Notes under the pieces: model-generated
Seen by the model: only the letters and a program-made list of their open reading frames with translations
Databases searched by the model: none
What the model was told of the DNA's origin: nothing
Shown here: one piece after another, positions 13,143 to 20,000 of the stretch
Layout: every line of letters starts with the position of its first letter
Numbering within the stretch: the stretch's first letter is position 1
Translations under genes and position numbers: made by a program
IMG/VR virus record: IMGVR_UViG_3300029705_003489
Origin: an uncultured virus (IMG/VR IMGVR_UViG_3300029705_003489)
Lineage: Duplodnaviria > Heunggongvirae > Uroviricota > Caudoviricetes
Direction: 5' to 3' (one strand)
Length of the DNA stretch: 20,000 bases

Positions 13143-15275
13143 ATGAAAAAAGGAAAGAAACTTTGGTGGATATTATTTGGTTTTACAGCAGTAATGACAC
13201 TATTTTCATTTTCAATAACACCGGATTATGAGGCAAGTGCAAAGGATTTATTTTTGTATCGCTTTAGTGGCGCTCTTTTATTTGGTGTATTTGCAATAGC
13301 TTTTCTCATTCAGACCGATATAGGCGGAATAAAGCAAAAGTTAGGCTTAGAATCCATAAAGAAGAAAGTATTGTTTTGGATTGCTACGGTTGCAGTAAGC
13401 ATAACAGCTTTTGGCGTTGTTGATGGTATGACAAGTGAGGAATTTCGGAATGCAAGAATGTCGCTTACTGTTACGCCGGCTCCAACCGCTGAACCTACGA
13501 TTACAGAAATAGCAGTAAACGTTGATAAAGCGATGCCTACGGATGTTCCAGAACCTACAGGAACGGTAACACCAACGGAAGTTCCTACTCCGATTAGTGA
13601 GCCGACACCAACCAGTGTTGTGAAGGTTGCTACACCAACTCCGACACTTGCTCCGGAAGAGACCGATATTGATGGTTATGTCTTTAATTTTGATAATGCA
13701 GTATTCGAAGTAAACGGATTGGAAATTACTTTCTATTCTGTAGAATTTGAAAAAGAGCTTTCCGTGGGTGGCTATTCTACGATATTTGAATATTCTGTAA
13801 AGAATACTGGTACTACAGAAGCAACTTTAAAATTTGCTACTACAAATCAGTTATATTTTAGTGATGGGGATTTAGCAGTACTTGCAGTACAGGCAATAAA
13901 TTCTTCTAAGCAAGGATATGAAACCAGTTACCGTTTACAACCGGGAGAAGAAACAGAAAAGACTAAAATTCTTTTGACGGCAACTTCCAGTACTACGGAT
14001 GCACGCATTGATGGTATTGATTATCCTAAGATTACTATCGAAAATATTATGTCCACGGAGCCTGTAACGATAGGAATTACTTTTACAGGCTGGGTAAATG
14101 ATAATCAAGAATCTACAAAAGTAACTTTCAATGTCAATGGTGGAGTAGAAGTAAGTCCGATAGATACACCAACTCCTACACCGGAACCTACCAATACACC
14201 AACACCAATGCCAACGGTGGCTCCAACGAATACTCCGGTTCCAGAACCGGAAGTGTCATTAGAAGATAGCTGGTTCTCGGTTATATATTTTAATGTGGGC
14301 CAAGGAGATGCTGCATTGGTTGAATGTGACGGTCATTATATGTTAATTGATGGTGGAACTTCGTCATATTCCAGTACATTATATTCCTACTTGAAAGAAC
14401 AGAAAATTGATACTTTGGATATTGTGGTTGCGTCTCATGCACATAATGACCATGTAGGTGGACTTGCAGGTGCTTTAAATTATGCTAAGGCTGATTTGGT
14501 ATTGTGTCCGGTAACGGAATACGACACGGATGAGTTCCGAGCATTTAAGAAATATGCAGAGAAGAATGGTCCCGGTATTACAGTACCGGAAGTCGGAGAT
14601 ACATATCGGCTAAGTAATGCTACGGTTACAATCAATGGTGTAAATGCCGGTGCTGATAATGATACATCGATTGTTATGACTGTTGAATACAGAGGAGAAA
14701 AATTTGTATTCACAGGTGATGCAGAGTATGCTGCAGAAGTGGCTGCGGTAAAGAATATCGAAGGTCCTGTAATGGCATTAAAGGTAAGCCATCACGGAAG
14801 TGATACATCATCTACATATCAGTTTTTACGTGAAGTTGCTCCGATTTATGCTGTAATTTCATGTGGTTATGGAAATGAGTATGGCCATCCAACAGAAACG
14901 GTGTTGAGCCGACTTGATGATGCAGATGCTGAAATATTAAGAACTGATTTACAGGGAGATATTTATTTCGAATATACCGAAGGTGAGTGGTATTACGGAT
15001 ATGAAACGGAAGTGGATTATGCACTTATTTTAACACCGGGTAGTTCATTTGTGGCTGATACAGGAGACACTGATACAGAAACCACTGTCGATAGAAACAA
15101 CACATCTACTTCTGGTGCAGATTATATCGGCAATGCAAACAGTATGGTATTTCATTATCCGGGATGTTCCAGTGTAAAGCGGATGAAGGAATCTAATAAG
15201 CGCTATTACGAAAATGTAACAAGAGAAGATATGATAAATAAGGGTTATAAGCCATGTGGTAATTGTAATCCGTAA
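13143..15275 (+). CDS. Membrane-anchored ComEC/Rec2-type MBL-fold hydrolase with C-terminal Ada-like Zn-binding domain
   Basis: Three N-terminal TM segments and two PT-rich linkers. MBL motifs NVGQGD, IDGG, HAHNDH, TGD, HHGS, YGHP, RTD..G. C-terminal YIGN...FH.PGC...GYKPCGNCNP. Confidence 0.88.
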   Translation: MKKGKKLWWILFGFTAVMTLFSFSITPDYEASAKDLFLYRFSGALLFGVFAIAFLIQTDIGGIKQKLGLESIKKKVLFWIATVAVSITAFGVVDGMTSEEFRNARMSLTVTPAPTAEPTITEIAVNVDKAMPTDVPEPTGTVTPTEVPTPISEPTPTSVVKVATPTPTLAPEETDIDGYVFNFDNAVFEVNGLEITFYSVEFEKELSVGGYSTIFEYSVKNTGTTEATLKFATTNQLYFSDGDLAVLAVQAINSSKQGYETSYRLQPGEETEKTKILLTATSSTTDARIDGIDYPKITIENIMSTEPVTIGITFTGWVNDNQESTKVTFNVNGGVEVSPIDTPTPTPEPTNTPTPMPTVAPTNTPVPEPEVSLEDSWFSVIYFNVGQGDAALVECDGHYMLIDGGTSSYSSTLYSYLKEQKIDTLDIVVASHAHNDHVGGLAGALNYAKADLVLCPVTEYDTDEFRAFKKYAEKNGPGITVPEVGDTYRLSNATVTINGVNAGADNDTSIVMTVEYRGEKFVFTGDAEYAAEVAAVKNIEGPVMALKVSHHGSDTSSTYQFLREVAPIYAVISCGYGNEYGHPTETVLSRLDDADAEILRTDLQGDIYFEYTEGEWYYGYETEVDYALILTPGSSFVADTGDTDTETTVDRNNTSTSGADYIGNANSMVFHYPGCSSVKRMKESNKRYYENVTREDMINKGYKPCGNCNP
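14161..14250 (+). repeat. Pro/Thr-rich low-complexity linker (TPTPTPEPTNTPTP...); a second one lies at ~13470-13660
   Basis: Translated sequence shows degenerate PT repeats. Confidence 0.7.
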
Positions 15276-16309: not shown

Positions 16310-16325
16310 GAATTAGGCGGGCTTG
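16310..16325 (+). other. Predicted attachment-site junction within comEC
   Basis: In-frame TAG-GCG-GGC-TTG-CAT-ATT: a stop codon sits immediately before (A)GLHIS, where ComEC normally has HxxA(I/V)SGLH. Confidence 0.7.
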
Positions 16326-18026
16326 CATATTTCGATGCTGTGCATGGGATTGTTCCGGATGCTTCGGAAAATGACGGTACCGCTTCGGTTATCTGTGGCG
16401 ATAGCTTCGATATTTTTAATGTTCTATGTAATCTTCACCGGAGCAAGTACTTCGTCGGTCAGAGCGGCAATTATGTGCCTGGTTACTTTTGGTGCCGTGC
16501 TACTGCGAAGGAGCTACGATTTGCTTTCTTCTCTTTCTTTTGCTGCTATTGTAGTTACTGTGAGATGGCCTGCAGAAGTAGACTCAGCCGGCTTTCTTCT
16601 TTCTTTTGGGGCAGTGCTTGGGATAGCTTTGGCGCAGGAGATAGAATATGTGGTGCTTCAGACGCGGGAAGGAAAACGTCCGTGGTGGTGTATATTTTTG
16701 TTCAGCGGCATGATACAGTGTGTTACTATGCCGGTATCTCTTTGGTTTTTCTATGAATTATCGCCATACGGAATCTTCTTAAATCTTTTGGTAATCCCCT
16801 TGGTTTCCCTGATTATCGGCGGAGGTCTGATATCGGCAGTGTTGGGACTTTGGTGGCCGGTGCCTGCAAAGCTTCCGGTGGGCGGCACTTATCTTTTACT
16901 GGAATTTTATGAATGGCTGTGTGAGGTGACCCAGAAGCTTCCTTTTTCATTTGTATTGCTGGGGCAGCCGGCGGTGTGGCAGCTGGTGGTTTATTATGGC
17001 TTGTTGGCAGGGGTGCTTTGGTGTTTTTTCCGAAATGTCGCCGGAGAGAAGATATCCGGTTCTGCTACATCAGAGTCGTCTGTAACTGCTGTTCAAAAAA
17101 AGGAGGTTATACTGGCAGCCGGTCTGATTTGCACGATAGGAATATTATTTTTTCCGTCAAATAGGAACACAGAACTTTTATTTATGGACGTTTCCCAGGG
17201 AGATGGTGCGTTAATTACGACGCCAAACGGAACCGTGATTTTGTCGGACTGTGGCAGCAGCGATGTGCTTCAGTTGACAGAGTATCGTCTGTCTCCGGTG
17301 CTGAAATACAACGGAATTCTTCTTGTGGACATGGCGGTAGTTTCCCACCTGGATGCGGACCATATCAGTGGTATCAGGGAACTTTTACGTGCAATGCCGG
17401 TATACGAAGGAGAAGTTGTTTTTGCCACCGGATATGCGGGTGCTGTGGGTGTTAAAGAGCTTGTTTTACCAAAGGTTTCAGAAAAATCAGAAGCATATTT
17501 GGAATTGGAGGCTTTGGCAAGTTCAAAGAATGTGAATGTCCGTTATATAGAAGCAGGTGAGATGCTATACCGGGAAAAAGAATTTCTCATGGAATGTCTG
17601 CATCCGTATCACGCGAAGGAATCGGACAATGACGCATCTCTTGTATTTCTTTTGCAGACACCAAAGCTTGTTGCCTGGCTGACCGGGGATGCAGGTATTG
17701 CACCGGAGACAGAGATTATTTCACATTTGGGAGCGGTGAATATGTCTGCTTTGCGTAATGGAAAGCTTGTGTTGCTTAAGGTTGGTCATCATGGTTCAAA
17801 AACGTCCTCAAGCCGGGAATTTATTGAGTATGTACAGCCGGATGTAGCGGTCATTTCCTGTGGTTATCACAATTCCTACGGGCATCCTCATGCCGAAGTT
17901 GTGAATCGGCTTGCTGCCTCCGGTGCCGAGGTATTCCGTACGGATTTGCAAGGGGCAGTTCTTGTGGAGGAGAAAGAGCGCAGGGGTGTTGTGGTGCACG
18001 GATGGAGGAAACTTGTTCGGGAGTAG
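16317..18026 (+). pseudogene. comEC: 3' portion of interrupted DNA-uptake gene comEC (rest of Competence domain + MBL domain)
   Basis: GLHIS, SSVRAAIM, GFLLSFGAV, NLLVIP, DVSQGDG, HLDADH, TGD, GHHGS, YGHP, RTD..G. No upstream half of the Competence domain and no clear RBS; syntenic with holA. Confidence 0.88.
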
Positions 18027-18046
18027 AGCGCTATAAGGAGATACTG

Positions 18047-18127
18047 CTTATTTTTGGGTTGGATGCCCGACCAGGCGGTGAAAGTGTGGGCCTGGACGGG
18101 CAGAAATCCAACCAATTAGAAAATAAG
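18047..18127. other. GC-rich long stem-loop preceding the array
   Basis: CTTATTTT...TTGGGTTGGAT GCCCG A CCAGGC -loop- GCCTGG A CGGGC AGAA ATCCAACCAA...AAAATAAG. Confidence 0.65.
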
Positions 18128-18459
18128 AACATATAGTTGGGATGACGTTCAAAATCAAAAACCAATCAAACAAGAAAGTATGTAGGTAAATTGGATTTCG
18201 ATTTTTTGTAATTCCAATGAAATGAGGATAATTGCTGTTTTGTTGGCCTTACTTATTTTATAAAATACCAACAGAAGATGGAAAAAAAGACAAATATTGG
18301 TTTATGTAATTTTATAAAAACCAACAAAGTGAGAAAGAAAAGATTTAAGTTGGTTTTTTGAATTACAATGGAGACCAACTAATTTGAATAAAGTGAGAAT
18401 TTGTTGGTTAATAAAAATTTTATGTACCAATAATTTTATGGTAATAAGCAATAAGTTGG
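18108..18459. repeat. Cryptic periodic array of seven CCAA-N25-TTGG units (period 52-54 bp)
   Basis: CCAA at 18108, 18162, 18214, 18268, 18321, 18375, 18427. TTGG at 18137, 18191, 18243, 18297, 18350, 18404, 18456. The offset is exactly 29 in all seven. Confidence 0.9.
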
Positions 18460-18485
18460 ATTTTGGAAACAGAAAGGACTGTAGA

Positions 18486-19304
18486 ATGAAAAGATTAGAA
18501 TATATTTTGAAAGAAGAGTTAGCACAATTGAATCATGTAGTAGAAATGACTAAACAAAGGCTTAATCATGTGCCGGAAGGTCACCTGAGAGTCAGAGAAT
18601 GGAATGGTAAGACGGAATATTACTATAGAAATAGTGAGTCGAAAGATACCAATGAAAGCAGGAGTAATGGTAGATATTTAAGAAAGCAGGAAAAGGTATT
18701 GGCAAAAAGTATTGCACAGCGGGATTATGATACTATGGTGATGAATAAAGCAAAGGAAAGAATTTATGCGATTGAAAAATTTCTTAGAACGTATGAAAGA
18801 ACAAGTTTAAAACAATTATATCAAGATACAATTCCGGGACGGCGAAAACTAATTGAGGCAGAAATAATCTCCGATGAAGAATACATCAGACAATGGCAAG
18901 ATGTTAGTTACAAAGGGAAAAGTTTTGATGATGAGGAAAATGAAATTATAACAGAGCGAGGTGAACGTGTTCGTTCAAAATCGGAGAAAATTATTGCAGA
19001 TAAATTGCATGCATTGAGAATCCCGTATCGTTATGAATATCCGCTTACTCTGGTAGGAGGACTCAGGGTATATCCGGACTTTACAATTCTGAAAATGCCG
19101 GAGAAGGAAGAAGTATACTTGGAACATTTTGGTATGATGGATGATGCAGACTATGCGGAAAATGCCTTACATAAGCTAAATACATTTGAGAAAAACAAGA
19201 TATATCTGGGAGTGAATTTATTTATTACTCACGAAACAAGCAAAAATCCGCTGAATACCAGGGCATTGGATGGCATGCTGAGGAAATTATTTTGTGAGGA
19301 ATAG
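18486..19304 (+). CDS. Putative PD-(D/E)XK-superfamily (Vsr/DUF559-like) nuclease with N-terminal helical region
   Basis: C-terminal GERVRSKSEKIIADKL...IPYRYEYPL...YPDFTI...YLEHFGMMD. AGAAAGGA RBS before ATG 18486; the ORF-track start at 18384 lies inside the array. Confidence 0.75.
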   Translation: MKRLEYILKEELAQLNHVVEMTKQRLNHVPEGHLRVREWNGKTEYYYRNSESKDTNESRSNGRYLRKQEKVLAKSIAQRDYDTMVMNKAKERIYAIEKFLRTYERTSLKQLYQDTIPGRRKLIEAEIISDEEYIRQWQDVSYKGKSFDDEENEIITERGERVRSKSEKIIADKLHALRIPYRYEYPLTLVGGLRVYPDFTILKMPEKEEVYLEHFGMMDDADYAENALHKLNTFEKNKIYLGVNLFITHETSKNPLNTRALDGMLRKLFCEE

Positions 19305-19335: not shown

Positions 19336-19417
19336 AAAAATGAATCGTATTAATTATGTATTGTTCTTTTTCGAAAATTTTGAGTGACAAAGTGACTGTT
19401 TGTCAAGGAGCCATCCA

Positions 19418-20000
19418 ATGAAAACTATAAAGGAAGATATCAAAAATAGAGAGTTTAAGCGGGTTTACCTTCTGTACGGAACGGAAGAATACTTAAAACG
19501 CCTCTATAAAAACAAACTGAAAGAGGCGGTATTGCAGGATTCTGACGCCATGAATATGGCGGAGTATGCCGGTAAAGGCATTGATGAAAAAGAGGTAAGA
19601 GAGTTTGCTGATACATTGCCGTTTTTTGCGGACTATCATTTGCTGATTTTGGAGAATACCGGCTGGTTTAAGAACTCTACAGACTTTACGGACTATGTAC
19701 CGGAGCTTCCGGACACGGCAGTGCTTGTGTTTGTGGAAACCGAGGTAGATAAGCGGAGCCGTATGTATAAGGCGGTCAAGGAGCATGGCTACGTTTGTGA
19801 GATGAACGGTATGACCGAACAGGAACTGAAAATGTGGGTAGCTTCCCTGCTAAAGCGGGAAGAACGTAAAATTACGGAATCAACCATTGAATTCCTTTTG
19901 GAGCAGGTGGGCACCGATATGGCAAAGCTTCAGAATGAGCTGGAAAAGCTGGTGTGCTATACCATGGGCAGAGATGTAGTAACTGTAGAAGACATCAGAC
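19418..20000 (+). CDS. holA: DNA polymerase III subunit delta, partial (runs off the window)
   Basis: Own translation: MKTIKEDIKNREFKRVYLLYGTEEYLK...ADTLPFFADYHLLILE...VDKRSRMYK...GTDMAKLQNELEKLVCY. AAGGAG RBS; follows comEC as is usual in Firmicutes. Confidence 0.93.
   Translation, partial: MKTIKEDIKNREFKRVYLLYGTEEYLKRLYKNKLKEAVLQDSDAMNMAEYAGKGIDEKEVREFADTLPFFADYHLLILENTGWFKNSTDFTDYVPELPDTAVLVFVETEVDKRSRMYKAVKEHGYVCEMNGMTEQELKMWVASLLKREERKITESTIEFLLEQVGTDMAKLQNELEKLVCYTMGRDVVTVEDIR

Follow-up and report, generated by a model that had tools for sequence, protein, structure and literature searches.

Repetitive extragenic palindromes and bacterial interspersed mosaic elements (REP/BIME) are short intergenic palindromes, often in tandem; a RAYT (TnpA-REP) gene is accompanied by copies of its cognate palindrome, and the class of palindrome differs between paralogues. 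Tandem, helically phased and often palindromic sites are also found in the 43-bp repeats of F sopC, in R1 parC, in plasmid iterons and in omega-protein heptad arrays, and in TIGR-Tas systems a Tas protein with a Nop (box C/D snoRNP-like) domain stands beside an array. Here we analyse a stretch of 20,000 nucleotides assigned to an uncultured virus (IMG/VR record IMGVR_UViG_3300029705_003489; hereafter the window), in which seven evenly spaced CCAA-N25-TTGG palindromes lie directly upstream of the gene for a predicted nuclease, P0001. The closest solved fold to this protein, I-Bth0305I, is described as a multidomain homodimer whose footprint on a pseudo-palindromic target covers about 60 bp (PMC3239194), and type III toxin-antitoxin loci are on record in Lachnospiraceae (PMC3401426). 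A full-text literature search, with subscription journals outside its coverage, found no description of arrays of the present kind. An earlier annotation, made by a model from the letters of the window alone (the first-pass annotation), had proposed a candidate undescribed array-nuclease system; this headline stands, and thousands of relatives come under it as well. The locus lacks features by which CRISPR, TIGR-Tas, type III toxin-antitoxin, REP/RAYT and partition/iteron systems are each defined. It would work most like cognate-site arrays of the sopC/parC/iteron type combined with REP/RAYT-like dispersal, with a catalytic domain related to EDxHD homing endonucleases. We read the array units as probable phased binding sites for homodimers of the adjacent nuclease, which would serve autoregulation or sequestration and whose dispersal is reminiscent of REP/RAYT, and give this reading a probability of about 0.5.

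The gap between comEC and the nuclease gene measures 459 bp and has a GC content of 34%. Within it, CCAA starts at positions 18108, 18162, 18214, 18268, 18321, 18375 and 18427 and TTGG at 18137, 18191, 18243, 18297, 18350, 18404 and 18456, separated by exactly 25 nt in 7/7 units and followed by linkers of 21/19/21/20/21/19 nt. The units share just 4-6 bp at each end, and beyond them the gap holds one extra CCAA (18112) and three extra TTGG (18054, 18059, 18463). The array and the elements next to it are as follows.

18108-18459, no strand assigned: array of seven units, each CCAA-N25-TTGG (33 bp), period 52-54 bp (sequence reading and simulation test)
18108-18140, no strand assigned: unit 1 palindrome
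18162-18194, no strand assigned: unit 2 palindrome
18214-18246, no strand assigned: unit 3 palindrome
18268-18300, no strand assigned: unit 4 palindrome
18321-18353, no strand assigned: unit 5 palindrome, arms extending to AAAAACCAAC/GTTGGTTTTT
18375-18407, no strand assigned: unit 6 palindrome
18427-18459, no strand assigned: unit 7 palindrome
about 18057-18113, + strand: GC-rich stem-loop after comEC, base GGTTGGAT...ATCCAACC, overlapping unit 1 (RNA fold of 18040-18500)
18472-18478, + strand: ribosome-binding site GAAAGGA (read from the sequence)

The array ends 12 nt before the ribosome-binding site and 26 bp before the start codon. The first-pass annotation had given the same motif coordinates, 25-nt gaps and linker lengths, had placed a GC-rich stem-loop before the array, which the RNA fold located, and had put the array end about 11 nt from the ribosome-binding site. 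It had also expected repeat finders to miss the array, and Tandem Repeats Finder and Rfam indeed reported nothing there. No T-run follows the stem-loop, which the terminator scan did not call; the promoter/terminator scan returned five sites against 5.3 expected and nothing useful.

The regularity of the array is well beyond chance. In 3000 composition-matched first-order Markov simulations of positions 18027-18485, restricted to non-homopolymer words, the best count of a word-N(g)-reverse-complement pattern reached a maximum of four and regularly spaced chains a maximum of three, compared with seven observed for each. The comparison with shuffled sequence that the first-pass annotation had proposed thus came out in favour of the array. 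The word restriction matters, since admitting A/T homopolymer words inflates the test and at least seven is then reached in 18/2000 simulations. A search for two successive CCAA-N25-TTGG units in 151 genus-sampled family genomes matched a single genome, which carries the nuclease gene, and the reversed control also matched once. The same array is present at L001, in a strain 99% identical to the window, and the unit number of seven is unchanged in contigs from four studies; copy-number variation of the array was found in none of these contigs. The seven evenly spaced CCAA...TTGG sites are real and part of a family-wide pattern, and the window array is an old, diverged array that retains only cores, spacing and period.

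To place the array in its family we fetched 160 homologous loci and analysed the 119 non-redundant ones with at least 350 bp of upstream sequence. A motif-free autocorrelation detector (threshold 0.55, 700 bp upstream) revealed tandem periodicity of at least 0.55 in 67/119 loci and in 0/119 equal-length controls from gene bodies or downstream sequence, and a motif-agnostic inverted-repeat scan found 64 arrays of 3-11 regularly spaced units. This upstream scan of homologs had been suggested beforehand, together with the question whether motif and spacing co-vary with protein phylogeny. The period class is retained in 16/16 protein pairs with at least 70% identity, in 27/35 pairs at 55-70% and in 24% of distant pairs. 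The unit palindromes have arms of 4-12 bp and an outer span with a median of 36 bp (quartiles 33-38, range 17-52). In most loci the array lies upstream of the gene and is co-oriented with it, the last palindrome being a median of 86 bp from the start codon. The arm sequence varies from locus to locus, and unit sequence is common to loci only above about 70% protein identity. An inner half-site, CTAA(A), is common to several distant subfamilies and adjoins an outer part that varies, as would be expected of protein contacts.

Downstream of the gene no arm word occurs in 22/29 loci tested, so the array is on one side; the idea that the arrays are transposon ends was dropped on this count. Two loci differ, with 19 (L073) and 11 (L080) cognate arm words in the 1.5 kb after the gene and arrays on both sides. 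In L008, L014 and L017 the units are nearly identical copies, centres included, which shows that arrays grow by duplication and that the 25-nt segments are not acquired spacers. The 53-bp unit of L014 (L014:2500-2950) reads AAAGGAGG, a spacer, ATG and a 12-codon open reading frame that ends in the palindrome arm (MKNWYARPAGYQ*). Such a mini-frame is not kept in the window, L008, L191 or L193 and is probably coincidence.

About a quarter of the gene-carrying contigs end within 600 bp upstream of the gene, and several of the arrays that lack an adjacent gene (orphan arrays, see below) stand at contig ends. Since many contigs end inside arrays, the array counts are lower bounds. The arrays appear to be a systematic cause of short-read assembly breaks in gut bacteria and would explain the frequent breaks in gut metagenome-assembled genomes.

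Analysis of the unit lengths revealed a quantisation by the DNA helix. They fall into classes of 41-44 bp (n=3, mean 42.7 bp), 51-54 bp (n=31, mean 52.8 bp), 62-64 bp (n=22, mean 63.3 bp), 73-75 bp (n=20, mean 73.8 bp), 84-85 bp (n=7, mean 84.4 bp) and 95 bp (n=1). Division of these means by the respective number of turns gives 10.67, 10.55, 10.55, 10.54, 10.55 and 10.56, and regression a slope of 10.49 with an intercept of 0.48. The helical repeat of B-DNA is 10.55 bp. This is also the best-fitting repeat of the unit lengths, with a resultant length of 0.905 compared with a null maximum of 0.403 in 2000 trials; 81/84 unit lengths lie no more than 1.5 bp from a multiple of it (28% expected), the exceptions being L138 and L160 (both 51 bp) and L054 (44 bp). 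The range tested was 38-100 bp, with single loci at 27, 106 and 128 bp outside it, and L002 (71 bp, three units) was not counted. L002 belongs to a 32% identical paralogue in G001, the genome of a strain 99% identical to the window. Its upstream region holds a long palindrome rich in GC, CCGGGATGGCTATTTT...AAAATAGCCATCCCGG, and a direct repeat of 41 bp, TTTGGATGGCATGCAG... (at 860-1010 and 1100-1190), which precede three TTGGG-N27-CCCAA units; contig C8 carries this entire locus in two copies, inverted.

Quantisation affects the whole period, whereas the palindrome span ranges from 17 to 52 bp; this places the palindromes within a continuous helix rather than in extruded cruciforms. Mismatches between the arms amount to 43 G:T, 40 A:C and 57 transversions compared with 2234 Watson-Crick pairs. 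An RNA hairpin on either strand would favour one type of transition, and neither is favoured here. Taken together, the phasing, the span variation and the lack of wobble bias point to double-stranded DNA sites rather than RNA. The first-pass annotation had listed a phased DNA array of dimer-binding sites at about five turns as its second option, and this is the one favoured by the n x 10.55 bp rule and the unbiased arm mismatches, with binding and dimer formation as its conjectural part. Purine-rich centres, considered as a strand signal, reflected a general skew only (purine fraction 0.587 in arrays, 0.591 in the gene body).

The same data bear on an RNA element, close to the first option of that annotation: the array would be transcribed and cut into units of a hairpin plus 25 nt, whose role would be to guide the nuclease, inhibit it or titrate it, much as in type III toxin-antitoxin, CRISPR or TIGR systems. 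The array directly adjoins the ribosome-binding site and so probably lies, at least in part, in the 5' leader, and the region folds better than shuffled sequences (z score -4.5 on the + strand, -8.3 on the - strand). Between its 95-bp-period array and the gene, a Treponema relative (L048:2860-2960) has a terminator-like hairpin AAAACACACAAAAAAA...TTTTTTTGTGTGTTTT; it is absent from the window and most loci. However, unit lengths that follow the B-DNA repeat are meaningless for RNA, the arms show no G:U excess, and folding is stronger on the antisense strand, which is what mere DNA palindromes would give. With stems of 4 bp and loops of 25 nt the hairpins would be unstable and are not credible, the centres are duplicated with the units in relatives, Rfam gives no match, and orphan arrays can sit between convergent genes. 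We therefore regard a processed guide or antitoxin RNA as very improbable.

If the units are DNA sites, the question is which protein binds them. The genome G103 carries seven paralogues, all with arrays, and these have seven different palindromes with periods of 52, 62, 63.5, 73, 74, 74 and 85 bp. Seven palindromes beside seven paralogues exclude a single host factor. Judged by these sequences, the adjacent protein is the only locus-specific product that would be able to match private palindromes. Among the orthologues linked to comEC, the half-site is CC-N-A with all four bases found at N, mostly matched on both arms, and residues 33, 37 and 39 of a predicted beta-strand sort with this third base. 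The alternative that another protein binds the arrays, or that DNA shape alone is at work, has the nuclease gene merely tend to land beside arrays, for example by homing into them. It is consistent with the existence of orphan arrays, with the two loci that have arrays downstream of the gene too, and with the fact that no clear specificity-determining residue was confirmed. It would nevertheless require seven other unlinked factors in G103, and it leaves aside both the upstream, co-oriented position close to the start codon and the retention of the period class among related proteins; we consider it unlikely.

Further arrays of the same motif are found elsewhere in the genomes. G001 contains two more CCAA-N25-TTGG arrays of 6-7 units on other contigs (three in total, one beside the gene); one lies upstream of a putative deaminase-like gene, the other upstream of a putative methyltransferase-like gene, both named from reading the translations. 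The C5 paralogue of G103 shares its palindrome and 74-bp period with arrays on C13 and C22, and the C17 paralogue its palindrome and 52-bp period with arrays on C21, C23 and C50; a single copy of the C17 palindrome is on C31. An array at the end of C44 probably continues into C17. The orphan arrays of G103 lie between co-oriented or convergent genes, and reversed-pattern controls for orphan arrays gave no matches. The single copy (L190:2346-2382, G103:C31) is a TACGGCTG...CAGCCGTA palindrome that forms a near-perfect 36-bp hairpin between convergent genes, resembles a bidirectional terminator and may be an array seed or remnant.

This dispersal could also be that of selfish repeats, REP/BIME-like junk owing its spread to cleavage by the nuclease and its changes of size to slippage, bound for mobilisation only and regulating nothing. 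Orphan arrays with the same arms and period and different centres speak for it, and near-identical units in many arrays imply recent expansion. Contigs often end in arrays, the family is patchily distributed (48/151 genus-sampled genomes, 1-7 copies each), and its cassettes lie downstream of many different housekeeping genes. On the other hand, the units of the window array and of the two orphan arrays in G001 are diverged nearly to saturation but keep their cores, the exact N25 and the period, which suggests selection in place. Mobilisation of single palindromes needs no whole-turn quantisation, and the closest P0001 orthologues are all found between comEC and holA though their ComEC proteins are only about 30% identical. 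On balance we find selfish spread alone doubtful. The third option of the first-pass annotation, substrate or footprint sites of a mobile nuclease cassette, stands in so far as housekeeping contexts vary and same-motif arrays occur elsewhere; the arrays are not exclusive to the nuclease gene.

The nuclease gene, its domain and the neighbouring genes are located as follows.

18486-19304, + strand: gene for P0001, 272 amino acids, N-terminal helical hairpin and beta-hairpin, C-terminal nuclease domain (AlphaFold2 and alignment)
18936-19292, + strand: PD-(D/E)XK (Vsr/EDxHD-like) nuclease domain, residues 151-269 (PADLOC and fold match)
16323-18026, + strand: comEC, upstream neighbour (Pfam Competence, E 4e-43, and Lactamase_B)
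19400-19999, + strand: holA, downstream neighbour, running off the window (Pfam DNA_pol3_delta, E 1e-11)

The translation agrees with the 272 residues and the RSKSE, PDF and EHFG motifs noted in the first reading, and the PD-(D/E)XK-like assignment made there is borne out by the AlphaFold2 model (mean predicted local distance difference test score 91.2) and by fold comparison. In this model, an N-terminal helical hairpin (residues 2-26 and 67-105) bears a beta-hairpin (33-48). Residues 154-272 align with the catalytic domain of I-Bth0305I (3r3p; Z 8.8, root-mean-square deviation 3.0, 92/98 residues), and weaker Foldseek matches were obtained to the nuclease domains of DrdV, Bax1, R2 and Hjc (E 5e-3 to 0.2). 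As modelled, the C-terminal domain has the restriction-endonuclease-like alpha/beta core fold of the PD-(D/E)XK superfamily and appears Vsr/EDxHD-like by fold match. Across 32 members, down to 30% identity, R163, S164, K165, E184, D198 (in PDF), E213 and H214 do not vary and E167 hardly does. These acidic and basic residues presumably have catalytic roles, and their invariance suggests that the nuclease site is probably active. P0001 has no Pfam or NCBIfam family, and 32 relatives are likewise without any Pfam match. PHROGs gave E values of 0.1 or worse, a sequence search of the PDB returned only chance-level thioredoxin reductase rows, and an Atlas lookup of the family only 'hypothetical protein' clusters.

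Searches for relatives revealed 3749 matches in 90% clusters and 5946 clusters at 50% identity. The family is common in gut Lachnospiraceae and is also present in Treponema and Fibrobacter; a viral origin was rejected, as the viral contig collection contained just one partial match. In the flanks of 36 loci the cassettes lie just downstream of housekeeping genes and are mostly co-oriented with them, the upstream neighbours including guaA (three loci), tuf, pckA and dprA (two each), tpiA, rpsI, metA and carB.

Residues 151-269 match the C-terminus of PADLOC PDC-S68 (E 5e-27) and HEAT_CxxC_PD-DEXK (E 3e-9). The same nuclease domain ends frames of 1112-1245 amino acids in other genomes (G112:C13:69374-69742, G051:C1:955689-956057, G122:C6:156028-156390); these frames match the architecture of PDC-S68, in which the domain is fused as part of a candidate defence protein. 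One could also imagine a defence or addiction device, in which chromosomal arrays store the nuclease as an inactive filament on a DNA 'sponge' and infection or loss of the array releases it. The closeness of the nuclease domain to the candidate phage-defence proteins PDC-S68, PDC-S69 and HEAT_CxxC_PD-DEXK, the patchy, multi-paralogue distribution and the near absence of the family from viral contigs agree with such a device, but the neighbours are housekeeping genes and not defence islands, and no partner genes were found at the loci. We rate it as improbable.

A comparison with the described systems shows where the locus departs from each. It resembles REP/RAYT in that palindromes are dispersed in the genome and the gene lies beside copies of them (three arrays in G001, two motifs of G103 at 3 to 5 loci each). 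The protein, however, is a predicted Vsr/EDxHD-like PD-(D/E)XK enzyme and not an HUH Y1 transposase (no Y1_Tnp match), and the arrays consist of direct tandem units with whole-turn periods, one-sided in 22/29 loci, in few copies per genome. With partition and iteron systems the locus shares phased tandem sites beside the gene of the presumed binder and a likely autoregulation, the phasing being found here. It differs from them in its chromosomal setting, in an intact predicted nuclease domain, in periods of 4-9 turns compared with 1-4, and in its build as a single-gene cassette with housekeeping flanks in 36 loci and no ParA/ParM or replication gene. I-Bth0305I has a similar catalytic fold and multidomain build, whereas the P0001 gene is not in an intron or phage, its N-terminal domain differs, and its presumed target is present in many copies beside the gene itself and not in an empty allele. 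No intron is found at the locus, and the position of cassettes downstream of conserved genes fits free-standing homing.

The likeness to the type III toxin-antitoxin systems ToxIN, CptIN and TenpIN lies in tandem repeats directly upstream of a potentially toxic nuclease gene. Here, in contrast, the fold is PD-(D/E)XK with no Pfam or PADLOC match to ToxN/AbiQ, CptN or TenpN, no terminator separates the window array from the gene, the repeats are not conserved in sequence, and the units follow the DNA helical repeat and carry internal palindromes. CRISPR and TIGR arrays show a comparable alternation of conserved and variable segments. The neighbours of the present array, however, are comEC and holA with no cas gene, P0001 is without a Cas match in Pfam or NCBIfam, near-identical repeats of 23-50 bp with unique spacers are absent, and in relatives the variable parts are copied with the units. 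Nor is there a tas (Nop-domain) gene, P0001 and 32 relatives having no Pfam match of any kind.

These observations are best accommodated by binding of the nuclease to its own array. In this model each 33-bp unit would be a pseudo-palindrome whose outer 4-6 bp (aCCAAc / gTTGGt) serve a homodimer as its two half-sites. DNA binding and pairing would fall to the N-terminal part of P0001, with its helical hairpin and beta-hairpin, and the C-terminal domain would be an intact Vsr/EDxHD-type PD-(D/E)XK nuclease. Because a unit comprises whole helical turns (53 bp = 5 x 10.55), bound dimers would lie on the same side of the helix, where contacts between them may give rise to a nucleoprotein filament along one side, its end 26 bp short of the start codon. 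Locally, autoregulation, e.g. repression, or sequestration of a potentially toxic nuclease would be the likeliest outcome. Same-motif arrays at other sites could be additional targets of the enzyme, or else non-autonomous copies whose spread and resizing it brings about in REP/RAYT fashion, possibly with cleavage. Observed directly are the array with its phasing, its family-wide association with the gene, the motifs private to each locus and the orphan arrays; binding by P0001, the dimer, the filament, repression and any cleavage are conjecture built on them.

Several results weigh against binding of the array by its adjacent nuclease. By either detection method 42/119 loci have no array, arrays can exist without an adjacent nuclease gene, and the statistics overstate independence as the loci are related to one another. 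Comparison of four strains placed 3/11 array substitutions in cores, where about 1.7 were expected; cores are thus hit no more rarely than the rest of the array, and purifying selection on every core is not shown at strain level. The centres of the two half-sites in the window array are 29 bp apart, i.e. 2.75 turns and no exact multiple. A rule that assigned the third half-site base to residue 37 (R/A, S or T/G, A, M or V/T, K/C) was unconfirmed by two new loci outside the original sample and is a lead only: L193 has eight units of CCTA...TCGG and L191 mixed arms. The fixed asymmetry in L193 implies that pairing at the third half-site position is not required.

Beyond the favoured binding of the nuclease to its own phased sites, the family could tentatively be taken as a new class of prokaryotic system, a possibility to which we lend limited credence. 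A sequence-specific nuclease would polymerise on one face of chromosomal strips of its own palindromes at whole-turn spacing, with a private code per paralogue and several strips per genome sharing one code. On such strips the nuclease would be stored, silenced or positioned, with the DNA acting as antidote or sensor, and the nuclease would copy and resize the strips. Such a class would not be RNA-guided and would fall outside the classical toxin-antitoxin, partition and transposon systems.

With helically phased, locus-specific palindrome arrays, an unannotated family of about 5,900 clusters at 50% identity gains a concrete partner. The n x 10.55 bp rule reads the DNA helical repeat out of genomes with unusual clarity and predicts face-specific cooperative binding, and in the many natural pairs of protein and palindrome a recognition code lies ready for deciphering. 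Should the enzyme spread or resize arrays, it would be a second, mechanistically different counterpart of REP/RAYT.

Of the words sampled from the window, 39% are shared by a further IMG/VR record (G002; linear, 11 kb, 19% complete), which is without a copy of the nuclease gene. Upstream of comEC, positions 13143-15275 of the window contain an open reading frame of 710 amino acids with a metallo-beta-lactamase domain and a C-terminal Ada-type zinc-binding domain, followed by two small open reading frames, one with a weak helix-turn-helix match.

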